This document shows, one piece after another, positions 3,137 to 45,661 of a stretch of DNA of 64,000 nt (the stretch's first letter is position 1; the number at the start of each line of letters is the position of its first letter). Under the pieces are notes generated by a model, which was not told where the DNA came from, ran no database searches, and saw only the letters and a program-made list of their open reading frames with translations. The stretch is taken from the NCBI GenBank assembly GCA_026387235.1, contig JAPLMD010000042.1:3185-67184 (forward strand), written 5' to 3'. The stretch comes from Candidatus Omnitrophota bacterium. Its GTDB lineage: Bacteria > Omnitrophota > Gorgyraeia > Gorgyraeales > Gorgyraeaceae. The position numbers and the translations under genes are program-made.

Positions 3137-5037
3137 ACTTTAGCGCATATCAGGGGTTTCAGTTTAAGCGCTTCTCGCTTCTTATCAATATGCTCTACCA
3201 TTAAATGAGCTGCTTTTATCGGATCGCCTTCAAATGCCCATTTCCCGCCGTATAGCGGCTCGATTTCATTACAGATATAATTTGTGACATTCTTACTTCC
3301 CATCACTCTTAACGGAGTGCCAATTACCACAAATATTCCGGATGCTACAAAATACCAGCCTATTGCAATTGCTTTTTCAGACATCCATTCAGGGGCAGCT
3401 CCTGCAACAGGAAGCTCATCTATGCTATTTCCAATGCCGCCTTCTTTTACCATCTCGCAGCAGGCAGTCAGTATCCTTGTATTGTCCACGCAAGAGCCTG
3501 TGTGTAAAACCGGCGGTATCCCAACTGTTTCGCATATCTCCTTTAGGCCGTCTCCGGCAAACTTGAAAGCAGCTTCCGGAGTTAAAAGGCCTGCTTTTGC
3601 GCATGCGCTCCCGGAACACCCTGTTTGCACAACCAGCACATCATTTTTTATAAGCTCCTTTACCATTTCTGCGTGGCAGAGGCCTGATTCATTTTTCGGA
3701 TTATCGCAGCCTATCACACCGGCTACGCCTCTTATCCTTCCGCTTATAATCGCGTCATTTAAAGGCCTGTATGACGGTCTGAAACTTCCGCCCAGGTTAT
3801 AAAAAATATTTTCCATTGTAAAACCAGCCACAAGCGTCATTTTTTCTTTTGGTATATTGACCTTGGAGCGATTTCTATTTTTATAATTTTCAATAGCGAT
3901 TCTTAAAATCTTTTTTGCTGTTTCCAATGCATCTTTTTCATGAAATTCTATGTGCTCCATGCCAACAAATTTTGCCTTGGGAGAAGTAGAAATAAGTTTT
4001 GTATGAAATGACTTTGCTACTTCCGGCAGGCTCGGCATTATACATTGTATATCAACAATCATTGCTTCTACAGCCCCTGTAATTATAGCCAGCTCCTGCT
4101 GCAGAAAGCTTCCAGCCATAGGCACGCCATGCCGCATAAGCACTTCTGCTGCAGTGCAGCATATGCCTGAAAGGTTTATGCCTTTTGCCCCGTATTTTTT
4201 TGCAAGTTCTACAAGCTCTTTGTCCTGGCTGGCTGTAACCATGATATCGGAAAGAATCGGCTCGTGGCCGTGCAAAAGAATATTGACCTCGTCTTCTTTC
4301 AATACGCCTAAATTCACCTCAGCTCGTATGGGTTCCGGGGAGCCGAATAAAATATCGCTCAGGTCAGTTGCTATCATTGAACCGCCCCATCCATCTACAA
4401 GCGAAGCCCTTATTGCTGATTCTAAAACATGCTTATACTCATTATCGCATCCTATGTGAGTCCTGGACATTGCCTGAACAACCTCTATATCAATACCCCT
4501 TGGATTGACATTTGTTTTTTTCCAGTTATCCCGCTGTTTCTTAGGGGCTCTCTTTGTCAGCGTTAATTCTCCTTCTTGCTGGCCGTATTCTTTTAAAATA
4601 ACTTCCCCAAGCTCTTCCGCAATTTTTAAATCACCTTTACCGTCTATTTTTATGCTGAATTCAACAGCTAGTTTCTTTAATTTCGCGGGGTCTTTTATAG
4701 AATAGTCCTTTACATGGCCTCTTCCCAGTTCAAGAAGCGTCCATGCAAGATCTCTGCCATGATCTGAATGACACGCAGCTCCTGCTGCAGCGTTACGGAC
4801 TAAATTTCTTGAGCTTATAGTATCTGCGTCTGCTCCGCACGCCCCCTTCTGAGCTCCTTCTCCGAACGGGTCTATCCTGCATGGGCCGAGGTTACAGATC
4901 TTGCAACACACCCCGAGCGTCCCGAATCCGCAATGAGGCTCCTGCTCCATAAAGCGGTCCCATACAGTAGAAATATTATTTTGCGCAGCTATCTCTAATA
5001 ATTTATCGTTAATAGGATTACCTGTTGGTTTTGCCAT
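3133..5037 (-). CDS. cooS: Anaerobic carbon-monoxide dehydrogenase catalytic subunit (Ni-CODH).
   Basis: 634 aa. The N-terminal cysteine-rich block CGFGTLGVCCKICNLGPCRI and the overall CooS/AcsA length and sequence character are diagnostic. Confidence 0.92.
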   Translation of the reverse strand: MAKPTGNPINDKLLEIAAQNNISTVWDRFMEQEPHCGFGTLGVCCKICNLGPCRIDPFGEGAQKGACGADADTISSRNLVRNAAAGAACHSDHGRDLAWTLLELGRGHVKDYSIKDPAKLKKLAVEFSIKIDGKGDLKIAEELGEVILKEYGQQEGELTLTKRAPKKQRDNWKKTNVNPRGIDIEVVQAMSRTHIGCDNEYKHVLESAIRASLVDGWGGSMIATDLSDILFGSPEPIRAEVNLGVLKEDEVNILLHGHEPILSDIMVTASQDKELVELAKKYGAKGINLSGICCTAAEVLMRHGVPMAGSFLQQELAIITGAVEAMIVDIQCIMPSLPEVAKSFHTKLISTSPKAKFVGMEHIEFHEKDALETAKKILRIAIENYKNRNRSKVNIPKEKMTLVAGFTMENIFYNLGGSFRPSYRPLNDAIISGRIRGVAGVIGCDNPKNESGLCHAEMVKELIKNDVLVVQTGCSGSACAKAGLLTPEAAFKFAGDGLKEICETVGIPPVLHTGSCVDNTRILTACCEMVKEGGIGNSIDELPVAGAAPEWMSEKAIAIGWYFVASGIFVVIGTPLRVMGSKNVTNYICNEIEPLYGGKWAFEGDPIKAAHLMVEHIDKKREALKLKPLICAKV

Positions 5038-12445: not shown

Positions 12446-12455
12446 CTTTCCTCCC

Positions 12456-12520
12456 AAATTTTGCGAAGCAAAATTTGATCCCGAGCCGCCATTATACCCG
12501 CGTATACGCGGCGAGGGACC
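12456..12520 (-). repeat. Structured leader repeat, copy B (AAATTTTGCGAAGCAAAATTT + GATCCCGAG..GCGGCGAGGGACC). It fills the murA-rpsP gap.
   Basis: Same architecture as copy A, with compensatory palindrome variants TGC/GCA. Confidence 0.7.
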
Positions 12521-23591: not shown

Positions 23592-23605
23592 ATTCATATC
23601 CTCCC

Positions 23606-23713
23606 AAATTTTGTGAAACAAAATTTAATCCCGCCTCGTGCCGAAACGAGTGCTAGCTAGGCACTCGGCGCCGAGGCAAGCTGCCCTGACTCTTACACCT
23701 AGCGACGAGGGGC
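23606..23713 (-). repeat. Structured leader repeat, copy C (long form: AAATTTTGTGAAACAAAATTT + AATCCCG..extended GC hairpins..GCGACGAGGGGC).
   Basis: The AT palindrome is identical to copies D1 and E. The GC-hairpin module carries an extra CCTCGTGCCGAAACGAGTGCTAGCTAGGCACTCGGCGCCGAGG insert. Confidence 0.65.
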
Positions 23714-28863: not shown

Positions 28864-29059
28864 CTTATATTTTCCCAATTTTTTATCTCTCCTCTCTCTT
28901 GAAAAATCGGTTTTATATGGTATAATTATTATAGCCGATAAGGGCAAACCCTGAGAAATCAGGGGGCGCAAAGCCTACGGGCCTAAGTTATTATGACAAG
29001 CCGTGACCAAAAGGTTAGTTAGGCAGTCAGTAATAATATGGCGGCCGGGTTGCCGAGCG

Positions 29060-36996: not shown

Positions 36997-37008
36997 GCTT
37001 CACCTCCC

Positions 37009-37077
37009 AAAATTTTGTGAAACAAAATTTTGATCCCGAGTGACCCTAATTATTTTCCATCGGGTCGCGAGGGACCC
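37009..37077 (-). repeat. Structured leader repeat, copy D1.
   Basis: AAAATTTTGTGAAACAAAATTTT + GATCCCGAG..GGGTCGCGAGGGACCC, immediately 5' of the SD (GGAGG at 37003-37007) and ATG 36996. Confidence 0.7.
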
Positions 37078-37087
37078 TTGTCTTTCG

Positions 37088-38104
37088 CTACTTGTTTTGT
37101 GCAACAAAATTTGATCCCGAGGCCGCCTCGCCATCAAAGGTGGCGGGTGAGACGAGGGGCGATTTTTTATATAAAAACTCTCCGAACATTTTGCTGTGTT
37201 TTGTCCATGACGAATCAAGGTCATTGTATGTCTTTACAAAATGCCGGAATCCGTTTATCTTTGCGTCCAGGTTATCTATGTGATGCAGGATGATCGCCTC
37301 GAAGCACATGGGCCTTTTAGGCGAACCCCATTCATGTTCTCCGTGATGGCTGAGTATTATATGCAGAATAAGATTTTTCAATTCTTCCGGAAAATCCTGG
37401 ATCTTATCAATTGCCGCGCTTACGATATTTACGCCCAGGACTATGTGGCCTATCAGCCTGCCTCTATCCGTATAATAAAAACTTCTTTTATACGCAAGTT
37501 CTTCTATCTTCCCTATGTCGTGGAGAGCTGTGCCGCATAAAAGAAGGTCGATATTTATATTCTCGTATTTTAAAGATATCGTTCTTGCAAGTTGAACGCA
37601 CGCGAGCGTATGCTCAACAAGCCCGCCTATGTACGGATGATGAAAATCACTGGCAGCAGGCGCTGTTTTGAATTTTTCAGATATGCCTTTATCGGAGAAC
37701 ACGTTATGTATTAAGACCTTAAGATAGGGATTTTTGATTGATTCCATTTCAGATAAAAAATCTTTAAACATCTGATTTCTGTTTTTATCTGAAACCGGTA
37801 CATACAGCGAAAGATCTACGGATTCCTCGTTTATCTTTTCTATGGATTCCAGTTTTAATTGCGGATAGTTTTTGTAGAATTCTACCTTGCCCCTTATTTT
37901 TATAAAATCATCTACGATAAAAGAATCAAATAAAGACTTTAAGGCGTCCCATTTCCTGCAATCCACCATGCCTGTCCTGTCGGAAAGTTCGAGCGATATG
38001 TATGGATTACCGTTCTTGGTGATGTCGAAGGATTTTTCTCTTACAAGATAAACCGACTCTACTATCTCTCCTTCTTTCAAATCGCTTATAAACCTGTGAG
38101 CCAT
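37088..38104 (-). CDS. yhaM: 3'-5' exoribonuclease YhaM-like (OB-fold + HD domain).
   Basis: N-terminal OB fold (DLKEGEIVESVYLVREK...GNPYISLELSDRTG). HD domain (HPYIGGLVEHTL...ALHDIGK...HHGEHEWGSP). The C-terminal ~24 aa are encoded by repeat copy D2. Confidence 0.75.
   Translation of the reverse strand: MAHRFISDLKEGEIVESVYLVREKSFDITKNGNPYISLELSDRTGMVDCRKWDALKSLFDSFIVDDFIKIRGKVEFYKNYPQLKLESIEKINEESVDLSLYVPVSDKNRNQMFKDFLSEMESIKNPYLKVLIHNVFSDKGISEKFKTAPAASDFHHPYIGGLVEHTLACVQLARTISLKYENINIDLLLCGTALHDIGKIEELAYKRSFYYTDRGRLIGHIVLGVNIVSAAIDKIQDFPEELKNLILHIILSHHGEHEWGSPKRPMCFEAIILHHIDNLDAKINGFRHFVKTYNDLDSSWTKHSKMFGEFLYKKSPLVSPATFDGEAASGSNFVAQNK
37092..37161 (-). repeat. Structured leader repeat, copy D2 (tandem to D1). 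It overlaps the last ~24 codons and the stop of yhaM.
   Basis: TTGTTTTGTGCAACAAAATTT + GATCCCGAG..GACGAGGGGCG. The yhaM reading frame runs through it (…SPLVSPATFDGEAASGSNFVAQNK*). Confidence 0.65.
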
Positions 38105-39693: not shown

Positions 39694-40065
39694 TTACATT
39701 ATTTCTACGGAAACTTCTGCAAGGCCTTTTTCCAGGTCAGCTATTTTGGAAAAAGCTGTTTTTGTAAGGTCTATCGCGCGGTTTAATCTCTTGGCAGGGC
39801 CTCTATCGTTTACCCGGACAATAACAGACTTGTCATTTTCCATATTTGTTACCTTTAATATAGTGTTAAACGGCAGGTCCCACATAGCGCACGTAAGCTG
39901 GGAATCATTAAATGTTTCCATATTGGCTGTTGTTAGAAGAATTCCCGGGTCTTTCTGGGAATACCAGGACGCCTTGCCTTTAATGACAATGGAACTGGTT
40001 CCTGCCTCCTTTAAAGAAAAAACCACAGCTATAAGAACTATCAACATAACTGCGGCTTTCTTCAT
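39694..40065 (-). CDS. rlpA: RlpA-like (DPBB_1 double-psi beta-barrel) septal lytic transglycosylase family protein.
   Basis: Signal peptide, then GKASWYS..........A....TCAM..LPFNT.LKVTN..N.KSVIVRVNDRGP. Confidence 0.75.
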   Translation of the reverse strand: MKKAAVMLIVLIAVVFSLKEAGTSSIVIKGKASWYSQKDPGILLTTANMETFNDSQLTCAMWDLPFNTILKVTNMENDKSVIVRVNDRGPAKRLNRAIDLTKTAFSKIADLEKGLAEVSVEIM

Positions 40066-40118: not shown

Positions 40119-40316
40119 AAATTTCGGTAATCCAGCCACCTTAATCCCGCGCTCGCAGAATCTTAGGCCTGTGACTTTGCGCCCCGCTCTTTCGAGCGGT
40201 TTGCCTTTGTCGTAATACTATTCAGTTGTCTCTAGTTATAAGTATGCCTCATTTTTTGGAAAAAACAAGGGCTGGCGCGAAGCGAACGCAGTGAGCTTCG
40301 CGCTAAAACATATTTA

Positions 40317-41609: not shown

Positions 41610-41657
41610 GGCTTATATTATACATAATTATAACTTAATGTAAACATCTTTTGTCCA

Positions 41658-41711
41658 CCCTCTGTCCACCTGCCAGGTGAGCCATCTGGCTCACCTGGCA
41701 GGTGGACAGAG
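41658..41711. repeat. REP-type palindrome (CCTCTGTCCACCTGCCAGGTGAGCCA..TGGCTCACCTGGCAGGTGGACAGAGG), the 3'-flanking copy of the RAYT.
   Basis: ~26-bp arms; near-identical copies at 42370 and 45614. Confidence 0.8.
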
Positions 41712-41718
41712 GCTTACG

Positions 41719-42351
41719 TTATTCTAGTATCATATCCTTTATTTTTGCCAATTCTCTTTGATAAGAAATTCTGTCTTCTACAAATTTTTTATACTCCTCT
41801 GGCTTTATATCTAATACATTGTCATATTCACAAATGCCCTCTTTATTACCGGAAATATATTCCCGATAAGAGGACCATTTCCAGTCTTCCGGGTTATTAA
41901 CTATATACGCTGTAGCAGGATTTAAATGAATGTATCTTGTCAAATGGAGCAACTGCGCATCGCTTTCTACCAGCACTTTTTTAAAACTACTCTCCCATAA
42001 TGGCCCTTTGCGATTATGCTTTATATTAAAATATCGCGAATAACTATTAAGCACGTTGCTCATAAAAACTGAAATTCCTTTGTCCTTTAATTGCTTAAGC
42101 ACTAAATGTATATGGGTCGGCATAATGCAATAACAAATAATCTGCACAAGTCTTTTAACGTCAAGTTGTTTAACCTGCATATTCCTTTCTTTGAACCTTG
42201 AAAACCGGACAAAAGGCCTTTCGATTCTATAATATTCAATGACTTCGCGCATCCTTGAATATTCAAAATCATTATTAAATATTACATATTCTGCGATACT
42301 TTTACTATAAACATGATAGATTTCGTCTGTAACTATGCGCTGACTATCCAT
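41719..42351 (-). CDS. tnpA: IS200/IS605-family Y1 (HuH) transposase of the REP-associated type (RAYT/TnpA-REP).
   Basis: HuH motif MPTHIHLV and catalytic Tyr region (TRYIHLNP). 210 aa from MDSQRIV (ATG 42351, SD AGGAGGGG). Flanked on both sides by the same long palindrome. The track ORF's N-terminal extension is just the palindrome translated. Confidence 0.8.
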   Translation of the reverse strand: MDSQRIVTDEIYHVYSKSIAEYVIFNNDFEYSRMREVIEYYRIERPFVRFSRFKERNMQVKQLDVKRLVQIICYCIMPTHIHLVLKQLKDKGISVFMSNVLNSYSRYFNIKHNRKGPLWESSFKKVLVESDAQLLHLTRYIHLNPATAYIVNNPEDWKWSSYREYISGNKEGICEYDNVLDIKPEEYKKFVEDRISYQRELAKIKDMILE

Positions 42352-42369
42352 TTTACCCCTCCTATAGCT

Positions 42370-42415
42370 TATACCTTTGGTCCACCTGCCAGGTGAGCCA
42401 GCTGGCTCACCTGGC
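42370..42415. repeat. REP-type palindrome (perfect 46-bp palindrome GGTCCACCTGCCAGGTGAGCCAGCTGGCTCACCTGGCAGGTGGACC), 5'-flanking the RAYT.
   Basis: Perfect dyad symmetry; same sequence family as 41658 and 45614. Confidence 0.8.
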
Positions 42416-42593
42416 AGGTGGACCAGGGTTCTCATTATATAAGACACATTTGGAGGGGATTTTCTTTCAAAAAAATTTAGATTTTTTCAGCAGACTAGAA
42501 GATATGTAAAAGGCGGTGAGTTTGTTTGCAAATAAAAATCCCCTGGAGGATTACTCCCCCAGGGGATTTAAACTGCTGAACTAATGTTTTAGG

Positions 42594-44655: not shown

Positions 44656-44667
44656 ATATCCTCCTTA

Positions 44668-44728
44668 AATTTTGTGAAACAAAATTTAATCCCGAGCAGC
44701 CCTTATTCTTCACTGAGTCGCGAGGGGC
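44668..44728 (-). repeat. Structured leader repeat, copy E (AAATTTTGTGAAACAAAATTT + AATCCCGAG..GTCGCGAGGGGC).
   Basis: Abuts the SD (GGAGG at 44660-44664) and ATG 44655 of the lipoprotein gene. It fills most of the PHP-lipoprotein intergenic gap. Confidence 0.7.
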
Positions 44729-45413: not shown

Positions 45414-45526
45414 GTTTCTCTCCTTAGCTAAGCATTGTGGTTCGACGCGCTCGCTTCGCTCGCTTGCTCACCACCATCCTGAGCAAGCGAAAATTTTATA
45501 AAATAAAATTTTCGCGCGTCGAAGGA
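45414..45526 (-). repeat. Highly structured GC/AT palindromic element between tRNA-Arg and the PHP gene. Outer stem TTCGACGCGC/GCGCGTCGAA encloses hairpins GAAAATTTTAT-ttt-ATAAAATTTTC and GCTTGCTCA-N9-TGAGCAAGC, plus a GAGCGAAGCGAGC tract.
   Basis: Inverted repeats read directly. It shares TCGCTTCGCTCGCT with the rplS-leader palindrome (11436-11501). Confidence 0.5.
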
Positions 45527-45603
45527 TGGCGTCCCAGGGGCGATTCGAACGCCCGACCCCAGGTTTAGGAAACCTGTGCTCTATCCATCTGAGCTACTGG
45601 GAC
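45527..45603 (-). tRNA. tRNA-Arg (anticodon CCU), with encoded CCA.
   Basis: Manual cloverleaf: acceptor GTCCCAG/CTGGGAC (7 bp), D-arm GCTC-AGATGGATA-GAGC, anticodon arm CAGGT-TTCCTAA-ACCTG (CCU at 34-36), variable loop GGGTC, T-arm GGGCG-TTCGAAT-CGCCC, discriminator G, CCA. Confidence 0.85.
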
Positions 45604-45613
45604 CTTTGACCTT

Positions 45614-45661
45614 GGTCCACCTGCCAGGTGAGCCAGATGATGGCTCACCTGGCAGGTGGAC
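45614..45661. repeat. REP-type palindrome (third copy of the RAYT-associated family), immediately upstream of tRNA-Arg.
   Basis: GGTCCACCTGCCAGGTGAGCCA-gatga-TGGCTCACCTGGCAGGTGGAC. Confidence 0.8.

Follow-up and report, generated by a model that had tools for sequence, protein, structure and literature searches.

Units in which a gene for a REP-associated tyrosine transposase (RAYT) is flanked by its cognate repetitive extragenic palindromic (REP) sequences have been described previously as REPtrons, as have genomes with several RAYT-REP pairs, genic REPs, "double-foot" REPs and REPs of the Planctomycetes-Verrucomicrobia-Chlamydiae (PVC) superphylum (PMC6006769, PMC3733652, PMC5581495). Among the TnpA-Y1 proteins, a Y---NP motif defines class 2, i.e., the RAYT-type versions, as opposed to the Y---Q of IS200 (Quentin et al. 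2018, PMC6006769). Within this class, subclass 2.1 is typified by NHVH or NH[YF]H, W[EQ] or FQ, and YIELNP or Y[IV]HLNP motifs, and this subclass, which corresponds to Group 1 of Bertels, was reported without REP-like sequences nearby (PMC6006769). The 16-mers flanking Group 1 genes occur 12 times, and Groups 2 and 3 are said to be the sole RAYT groups associated with REPINs, i.e., inverted doublets of REPs. Further, decay of the palindromes has been reported for Neisseria lineages from which the RAYT was lost (10.1101/2021.07.10.451892). Such REPIN-RAYT systems have been discussed as long-lived, vertically inherited replicators, on the basis of data drawn nearly all from Gammaproteobacteria and from Groups 2 and 3.

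Here we consider a comparable unit in a 64,000-nucleotide stretch of DNA (hereinafter the window; positions 3,185 to 67,184 of contig JAPLMD010000042.1, assembly GCA_026387235.1) from a Candidatus Omnitrophota bacterium. A preliminary description of the window had pointed to a gene for a 210-aa HUH/Y1 protein bracketed by palindromes, with a third palindrome upstream of a tRNA-Arg, and this arrangement was borne out (Table 1). The unit is probably a REPtron, comprising a vertically inherited, single-copy RAYT flanked by two copies of its cognate REPIN-like doublet.

The RAYT, its relatives and its flanking palindromes

The catalytic core of the window RAYT is intact. Its HUH motif reads MPTHIHLVL and its catalytic tyrosine motif RYIHLNP, with H80, H82 and Y140 invariant across 40 homologues; the segment Y140-I-H-L-N144-P145 constitutes a Y---NP signature, of which the Y, N and P are likewise invariant in the homologue alignment. 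The protein exceeds the cutoff of the Pfam Y1_Tnp model (PF01797; 32.2 bits against 23) and its best NCBIfam model is REP_Tyr_transpos (NF047646; 62.1 bits, E 5e-17), with the NCBIfam transpos_IS200 model giving no match at E<1. A profile of the 40 homologues compared with the Protein Data Bank (PDB) recovers E. coli TnpA-REP (4er8) with E 8e-6 and the ISDra2 TnpA with 0.02. An AlphaFold2 model (mean per-residue confidence, pLDDT, 81.9; predicted template-modelling score, pTM, 0.81) predicts a TnpA-type alpha/beta fold of a RAYT-like kind, for which the top Foldseek match in the PDB is again 4er8_A (E 6.8e-7), followed by the TnpA proteins of ISDra2, IS608 and IS200, the first 25 matches being all Y1 transposases. 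Together, the Y---NP motif, the match to the RAYT model and the nearest solved relative support a protein of the RAYT class and not an ordinary IS200 TnpA, as the preliminary description had proposed.

The nearest published subclass, as judged from the WE, YIHLNP and W..SSY motifs, appears to be Quentin subclass 2.1, i.e., Bertels Group 1. The clade of the window RAYT has the Y[IV]HLNP and WE motifs along with an invariant T before the HUH motif (THxH) and an extra segment of ~25 aa after the first helix (helix A), and more distant members of the family display the consensus PNHFHL, ..QGRFK and YIHLNP. Plasmid-borne proteins of Iodobacter and P. aeruginosa (NHVH, YIELNP) are 26-31% identical to it, and all plasmid or phage relatives stay below 40% identity. 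At its C-terminus the structural model has a single helix (184-209), and in the alignment the window RAYT lacks the ~40-aa tail of the Iodobacter and Pseudomonas proteins. The family is large, with 3,267 word-sharing clusters at 90% identity, of which the named ones are all from Omnitrophota, and 266 clusters with E<=1e-30 at 50% identity; nearly every homologue cluster is found in one genomic context only.

A tblastn search gives one RAYT copy in the window. Orthologues that are 91-92% (P0002, P0003, the latter with 19 aa differences from the window RAYT) and 86% (P0007) identical occupy the same slot in five other assemblies, between a gene for an Alginate_exp-type outer-membrane protein (where the contig extends far enough) and a PIN-PhoH gene, and no near-identical RAYT duplicates were found anywhere in the homologue clusters. 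The single copy, the syntenic slot and the low identity of the mobile relatives are what a resident gene would show, as opposed to an insertion sequence (IS): the window RAYT is a single-copy, domesticated-type, vertically inherited gene. A 70%-identical paralogue (P0019, locus L125) lies on the same 58-kb contig as P0003. Additionally, a 64%-identical paralogue is situated between the genes for a family 2 glycosyltransferase (GT2) and a GGDEF protein in L132 (10001-10630), where the gene order is that of the window (M48 peptidase ... CSD ... GT2 ... GGDEF); as tblastn detects only one RAYT copy in the window, a paralogue of this type is absent there. The RAYT paralogues are themselves polymorphic in their presence. 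The 58-kb contig just mentioned (Ga0172369_10000502, 58,371 bp; L005/L107 and L125) breaks off 0.2-0.7 kb or less from a RAYT unit on either side, that of P0003 at one end and that of P0019 at the other, and therefore such units or their palindromes may break short-read assemblies.

The palindromes of the window were recognized through the 21-mer GTCCACCTGCCAGGTGAGCCA, whose six occurrences form three inverted pairs (0 expected from 100 shuffles). As single-stranded DNA (ssDNA), the three are calculated to fold with -30.5 to -34.5 kcal/mol (z -9.5 to -11.5), and their GC content of 64-67% stands out against the 41.7% of the window, in which no other GC-rich perfect palindrome with a stem of at least 10 bp was found. 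A search of Rfam gave nothing at the palindromes. The ends of the unit are not distinct left and right ends (LE/RE), the same palindrome being present on both sides. The positions first assigned to copies 1 and 3 were correct to within 1 nt; that of copy 2 (42370-42415) had been set 8-10 nt too far to the left.

Table 1. Positions of the features of the window, and of related sites on other contigs (entries with an L number)
Feature	Position	Strand	Remarks
RAYT (TnpA-REP class) gene	41719-42351	minus	210 aa plus stop; ATG at 42351, preceded by AGGAGG Shine-Dalgarno; HUH H80/H82, catalytic Y140, W119-E120, W..SSY 157-162
Palindrome-gene-palindrome unit	41659-42425		767 bp
Palindrome copy 1 (type 1)	41659-41712		26-nt arms, 2-nt centre, 100% complementary; inner palindrome CACCTG-C-CAGGTG per arm; 6 nt past RAYT stop codon, just before PhoH promoter-like site; ssDNA fold -34.5 kcal/mol, z -11.5
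Palindrome copy 2 (type 1)	42378-42425		24-nt arms, no spacer, 100% complementary; in RAYT 5' leader, 27 nt upstream of ATG; ssDNA fold -30.8 kcal/mol, z -9.45
Palindrome copy 3 (type 1, orphan)	45615-45661		21-nt arms, 5-nt loop, 100% complementary; begins 11 nt upstream of tRNA-Arg(CCT) 5' end, ends 9 nt after apt stop codon
Possible scar	41652-41658		7-nt duplicate of arm end (TGTCCAC) abutting copy 1
Conserved upstream block TTTTTTTGAAAGAAAATCCCCTCCAAATGTGTCTTATATAAT	42430-42476	minus	outside the palindrome; presumed promoter
tRNA-Arg(CCT)	45527-45603	minus	
Leader element	1320-1362, 12449-12491, 23599-23640, 37003-37046, 37085-37127, 44660-44702	minus-strand reading	
c-di-GMP-I-GGC riboswitch aptamer (RF03167)	40122-40214	minus	69.1 bits; upstream of RlpA/DPBB gene 39694-40065
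c-di-GMP-I-GGC riboswitch aptamer (RF03167)	28934-29058	plus	61.6 bits
Compound hairpin	45441-45523		between tRNA-Arg 3' end and PHP-domain gene start; from raw sequence only
Type-switch sites	RAYT flanks, window vs L004-L007 and L133; L081 769 vs L118 1125		
In-frame type-1 doublets	L016 5228-5271; L045 662-705; L011 6035-6078; L043 2905-2948; L046 619-662; L049 2186-2229; L076 1158-1207; L098 290-333		
Further palindrome families	L004 2189-2230; L053, L059, L098 (several); L016 8355-8414; L038; L129 6016-6046; L013 975-1009; L011 2534-2581		

Each palindrome comprises two inverted units of ~21 nt around a centre of 0-5 nt and forms a hairpin of 21-26 bp as ssDNA. The unit itself can be written as GTC + (C/A)ACCTG-N-CAGGT(G/T) + A(G/C)CCA, and contains a hairpin of its own of 5-6 bp. 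This inner hairpin is present in every arm and its pairing is kept by compensatory changes, which identifies the palindromes as REPIN-like doublets, with arms of 21-26 nt, a centre of 0-5 nt and compensatory variants in types 2, 3, 4 and 6. Hence, of the earlier label, the designation as a cognate repeat stands, the REP proper being the ~21-nt unit with its own small hairpin and the visible elements its inverted doublets.

The pairing of RAYT and palindrome is lineage-specific. In 10 of 11 lineages, spanning 59-100% identity, the RAYT is flanked on both sides by the lineage's own palindrome or hairpin, and in the remaining one on the upstream side only. Thus, the 91%-identical orthologues carry on both flanks a type 2 palindrome (TGGTCAACCTGCCAGGTTACCC...GGGTAACCTGGCAGGTTGACCA), which differs from the type 1 of the window by three changes per arm. 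With these changes, pairing is preserved in the long hairpin as well as in the inner hairpin (AACCTG/CAGGTT). Type 3, whose inner hairpin is CAACTT-CGC-AAGTTG, brackets the 70%-identical paralogue in L125. The palindrome of the RAYT from Ca. Gorgyraea atricola is of a GGAC-GCGTT-GTCC type, and further lineages have CCGTTCGCCGATCGG, GGCAACCT-CGT-AGGTTGCC, tandem AACCTGCGAGGT units or, in one case, single CCCACC-GCGTA-GGTGGG hairpins in inverted orientation. The inner hairpins accordingly form a compensatory series of CACCTG/CAGGTG, AACCTG/CAGGTT, CAACTT/AAGTTG, GGCAACCT/AGGTTGCC, and CGGAC/GTCCG versus AGAC/GTCT.

The conservation of the unit extends beyond the palindrome. The block TTTTTTTGAAAGAAAATCCCCTCCAAATGTGTCTTATATAAT is nearly invariant in alignments of the window with L004, L109 and the L125 paralogue (70% identical), and is also found upstream of the RAYTs in L127, L129, L130, L132, L133 and L134, whose genomic surroundings are different; in most lineages a conserved block TTTTGAAAGAAAATCCCCTCCAAATGTGTCTTATATA lies 5' of the upstream palindrome despite the differing contexts. 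The conserved unit therefore runs in the order block, doublet, Shine-Dalgarno sequence, gene, doublet. A scan for sigma-70 promoters did not call the upstream block, the spacing of which does not fit, and so a promoter function is presumed; if the block does serve as one, the RAYT transcript would begin with a hairpin.

Several further palindromes were noted on the same metagenomic Omnitrophota contigs. They belong to at least six nested perfect families, e.g., CCGTTCGCCGAACGG, CCACCGCGTAGGTGG, GGGAGTCCGACTCCC, AAGACCAGGTCTT, GACTTCSGAAGTC and a GTAG...CTAC "double-foot" type. Two or more of these families match the flanks of other RAYT paralogues. The co-existence of several palindrome families, surmised in the preliminary description, thus applies to the related genomes and not to the window, where the two additional families claimed reduce to an AT-rich leader motif (see below) with no other REP-like palindrome. 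In L134 (1250-1440), the P0012 RAYT has a type-1-like palindrome upstream and, farther out, a half-element of the CCGTTCGTCGATCGG family; this slot, upstream of fusA, holds in L129 a RAYT with the CCGTTCGTCGATCGG family. From its sequence, this slot looks like one with a layered history of palindrome or RAYT replacement.

Dispersal, turnover and genic insertion of the doublets

A scan of metagenomes with the degenerate arm pattern GTCMACCTGNCAGGTKASCC recovered 116 loci with 67 perfect doublets, a RAYT gene being present at just two of the loci. Clustering by flank homology collapses the doublets to at least 37 non-orthologous sites, 14 of type 1, 20 of type 2 and three at which the type, 1 or 2, differs between genomes; type-1 or type-2 doublets stand alone, without a RAYT, at no fewer than 35 other sites. 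The palindrome thus extends well past the three sites from which it was first described. All copy-number figures here derive from metagenome contigs, the 64-kb window and three representative metagenome-assembled genomes (MAGs). By contig, the count is 1-5 doublets, with three in the 64 kb of the window and at least four on a 378-kb contig.

Besides the 67 perfect doublets, about 12 copies carry one mismatch, and there are a few half-elements. In doublets only complementary arm combinations were seen (C..G..G and A..T..C, and a single A..T..G); mixed combinations are confined to single matches in GC-rich, unrelated contigs, and are taken to be due to chance. Sub-families can be distinguished by type and by centre nucleotide (C, A, T or G), and both the centre base and the outer stem beyond the GTC vary among copies with complementarity being kept. 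Copies with at least four extra paired bases number 13, with 0.23 expected. The CACCTGC of the arm overlaps the AarI/BspMI recognition site; this was dismissed as a coincidence because the centre base varies.

Comparison of orthologous sites reveals both filled and empty versions. One site is filled in L053 and empty in L052 and L061, and another is filled in L018, L068 and L052 and empty in L053. At ~3137/3138 of the window two genes are 3 nt apart, and the corresponding junction in L060 (4870-5040) has an additional 73 nt that include a type-2 doublet. A single intergenic slot can moreover carry different palindrome families in different genomes. The site of the window's orphan copy 3 is also filled in L004, L070 and L074, with a type 1 doublet of centre A. 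In L052/L061, a candidate cargo gene between paired palindromes 1 kb apart was rejected, as it is an oppD-like ABC ATPase within an operon.

At three fixed orthologous sites, both RAYT flanks included, the doublet switches between type 1 and type 2. Each switch amounts to six concerted base changes, and at conserved sites the arms are 95-100% identical with flanks of 80-89% identity. On these alignments, point mutation seems a less likely cause than gene conversion or replacement in place. A short arm-end duplicate abuts copy 1 of the window, where the alignment in gene orientation reads ...GGTGGACAGAGG|GTGGACAAAAGATG for the window and ...GGTTGAC|CAAAAGATG for the orthologue in L004; analogously, L125 has the tail of a type-2 arm behind its type-3 palindrome. 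The two remnants may hint at re-insertion at the same spot, although they are suggestive only.

The doublets are not strictly restricted to intergenic regions: at least seven independent sites lie in-frame within genes. Genic location was judged by reading of open reading frames together with continuity of Pfam domains, and a stop-to-stop open-frame test for extragenic location was set aside: two of the three frames are open through the palindrome, which made the test misleading. The hosts are alaS, fmt, a GT4 glycosyltransferase, a GT9 heptosyltransferase, a MiaB-like radical-SAM gene, an LpxL-ELM1 fusion and the interdomain linker of another radical-SAM protein, and a Pfam domain spans the insert in all but the last. 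The inserted peptide has the form VHL[PST]GEPxGSPxRWT (15-17 aa), and is LSTCQVSQLAHLAGG in alaS. The inserts in alaS and fmt are old, since they are common to genomes whose flanks are ~70-83% identical at the nucleotide level. Other phyla are already known to have genic REPs, some of them in genes for tRNA synthetases (PMC3733652).

Proposed mechanism and competing explanations

A mechanism for the REPtron can be modelled on E. coli TnpA-REP and IS608 TnpA. The HUH/Tyr enzyme would bind the REP hairpin on ssDNA at the replication fork, and cleave and rejoin the DNA beside it by way of the tyrosine, with the outcome that doublets would occasionally be copied to new sites or replaced in place, including at the two sites beside the RAYT gene. 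It is from these analogies that we infer REP binding and cleavage, and the role of the RAYT as the agent of mobility.

Several observations weigh against the REPtron interpretation. First, the 62.1 bits of the window RAYT fall below the equivalog cutoff of 80 of NF047646, as do the scores of the Group-1-like plasmid proteins compared (69.6 and 75.6 bits). Second, the canonical 5' GT[AG]G (or CGTC) tag was not found as a conserved foot: type-1 and type-2 units start with GGTC or TGTC before the inner hairpin, and GTGG occurs only inside the type-1 stem and is lost in type 2. Third, the REP type does not simply track the similarity of the RAYTs, for the window RAYT, which has type-1 flanks, shares 91% identity with RAYTs flanked by type 2, and just 79% with the other RAYT whose flanks are type-1-like, and L004 holds a type-1 orphan copy though the flanks of its own RAYT are type 2. 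Fourth, the copy number is modest and unlike that of E. coli: long contigs have an exact-core doublet every 40-150 kb or so, and a scan of genome contigs for the exact centre-C 21-mer matched only three other Omnitrophota MAGs, all GTDB representatives, at one site each. Finally, the filled and empty comparisons come without clean element boundaries or a target site (flanks 72-83% identical), and many sites are old, being orthologous across about 70-85% nucleotide divergence, so that turnover is slow.

Of the alternatives, each of which is contradicted by several observations, the one that fares best, though still unlikely, is that the palindromes are host cis-elements, such as transcript-end or stabilizer hairpins, insulators or a protein-binding site, which have spread without RAYT catalysis and are kept by selection or gene conversion, with the link to the RAYT reflecting gene regulation or a site preference of the cassette. 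Most copies are indeed intergenic, some of them within operons (e.g., the opp-like ABC operon of L052/L061), and the RAYT gene has one in its 5' leader and one at its 3' end. Further, the sites and sequences are far better conserved than their flanks, which fits purifying selection, and the inner motif CACCTGnCAGGTG would suit a dimeric protein that binds double-stranded DNA. However, the stems are followed by no T-run and a scan called no terminator at the full palindromes; copies lying in-frame in alaS, fmt, glycosyltransferase and radical-SAM genes would be senseless as regulatory sites; and the occurrence in each RAYT lineage of its own palindrome type at both flanks is the pattern of an enzyme and its substrate. 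The presence/absence differences and type switches at fixed sites also speak against this explanation.

A TIRtron in the sense of Di Nocera 2013, i.e., a Group-1/TIRYT transposase between self-complementary terminal inverted repeats (TIRs), with few solo TIRs and no replicating REPIN population, is quite improbable, and is largely a difference of name. It draws on the motifs of the broader family (NH[YF]H / FQ / Y[IV]HLNP), which match subclass 2.1, i.e., TIRYT or Bertels Group 1, on the TIR-like single hairpins in inverted orientation that flank the RAYT of L131, and on a moderate copy number like that reported for TIR families and Group 1. Yet each flank is a complete inverted doublet, the doublets have dispersed to dozens of sites and into genes, and their sub-families by centre nucleotide and type are those expected of a replicating population. 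Lastly, it is very improbable that the unit is an autonomous IS200-like insertion sequence or its relic with the palindromes as subterminal hairpin ends, for although it is close to IS200 in size, encodes a Pfam Y1_Tnp protein, recurs with the same promoter-palindrome-gene-palindrome layout in different contexts (and so moved or was duplicated over evolutionary time) and delimits one 58-kb contig on both sides, it is present once in the window with no near-identical copies seen anywhere, keeps a syntenic slot in 86-92% identical orthologues, encodes 210 aa with Y---NP rather than ~150 aa with Y---Q, has no tnpB nearby, has the same palindrome at both ends that also stands alone elsewhere, and shares with paralogous units a homology which runs ~50-75 nt past the upstream palindrome.

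In the literature searched, no publication combining RAYTs or REPINs with Omnitrophota was found. Taking the unit as a REPtron, what is modestly new is the host phylum and a RAYT that is nearest to subclass 2.1/Group 1, which was reported without REPs, and that lies outside Groups 2 and 3. A kind of system described chiefly in Proteobacteria would thereby gain a new phylum, with no new mechanism. We raise more tentatively, as a possibility somewhat short of a favored view, that RAYTs of a Group-1/subclass-2.1-like kind, in no fewer than 266 clusters at 50% identity, have radiated throughout the Omnitrophota, with several pairs per small genome, that their doublets are renewed in place by switches of the whole type at fixed sites, both RAYT flanks included, and persist in-frame in essential genes such as alaS and fmt, and that the REPIN-RAYT association arose or survives well outside the Proteobacteria in a different RAYT lineage. 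A REPtron in an uncultured phylum of the PVC group would widen both the taxonomic and the enzymatic range of these systems, and types 1, 2, 3 and the others would offer a natural specificity series for how RAYTs read hairpins. There are also consequences for annotation: the genes are labelled simply "transposase", housekeeping proteins acquire a recurrent 15-aa peptide from the palindromes, and the palindromes may also break assemblies.

Other features of the window and comparison with known systems

A leader element is found directly upstream of at least five genes of the window, one rpsP-like and one for a lipoprotein among them, and ends in a Shine-Dalgarno sequence: ...GGTCCCTCGC(n)GGCGGCTCGGGATyAAATTTTGyTTCrCAAAATTTGGGAGGA-ATG. 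It has no Rfam match even at E<=1. Among the "other palindromic families" of the preliminary description this is probably one, but its appearance is that of a 5' untranslated region or an element for expression, and not that of a REP. Two riboswitch aptamers were also identified, and the compound hairpin next to the tRNA-Arg has an outer stem TTCGACGCGC...GCGCGTCGAA around two inner hairpins.

Of the described systems, the Rickettsia palindromic elements and other genic REPs (Di Nocera 2013) resemble the doublets in their in-frame insertion into housekeeping genes, including those for tRNA synthetases, and in adding a short peptide in loops or linkers. They differ in that the insert of the present family is only 45 nt and has an identifiable cognate RAYT. 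The IS200/IS605 TnpA proteins (IS608, ISDra2, IS200; subclass 1.1) share the HUH/Y1 fold, the recognition of DNA hairpins and a unit of ~0.7 kb. However, they are Y---Q proteins of ~150 aa from multi-copy elements with distinct LE and RE and often a tnpB, whereas the window unit, one copy in a syntenic slot without tnpB, encodes a Y---NP protein of 210 aa between identical ends, and its palindromes also occur solo.

The Proteobacterial REPtrons, such as E. coli TnpA-REP with its Y/Z REPs and the REPINs of P. fluorescens SBW25 (Groups 2/3, equivalent to subclasses 2.2/2.5), have in common with the window a single-copy Y---NP gene flanked by cognate palindromes, inverted doublets of a short hairpin REP with mostly intergenic orphans, the possibility of several RAYT-REP pairs per genome, and vertical, syntenic inheritance; 4ER8 is the best solved structural match. 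In contrast, the window RAYT shares only ~15% identity with E. coli TnpA-REP and scores under the equivalog cutoff of NCBIfam, and its REPs lack the 5' GT[AG]G tag. Its perfect doublets have 0-5 nt at the centre, where those of SBW25 have spacers of tens of nt, and there are tens of copies at most in a host from the Omnitrophota (PVC group) as against hundreds in the Proteobacteria.

Finally, subclass 2.1 (Group 1, TIRYT) shares with the Omnitrophota family the Y[IV]HLNP, WE (FQ in distant members) and W..SSY motifs, a length of ~210-240 aa, the NH[YF]H of the more distant Omnitrophota members and moderately abundant flanking repeats. It differs in having an N before the HUH motif, where the window clade has the invariant T and its extra ~25-aa segment, and a C-terminal DnaA_C-like helix-turn-helix tail, in place of which a single long C-terminal helix is predicted for the window clade. 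No nearby REP-like sequences were reported for subclass 2.1, whereas they are present in every lineage examined here.

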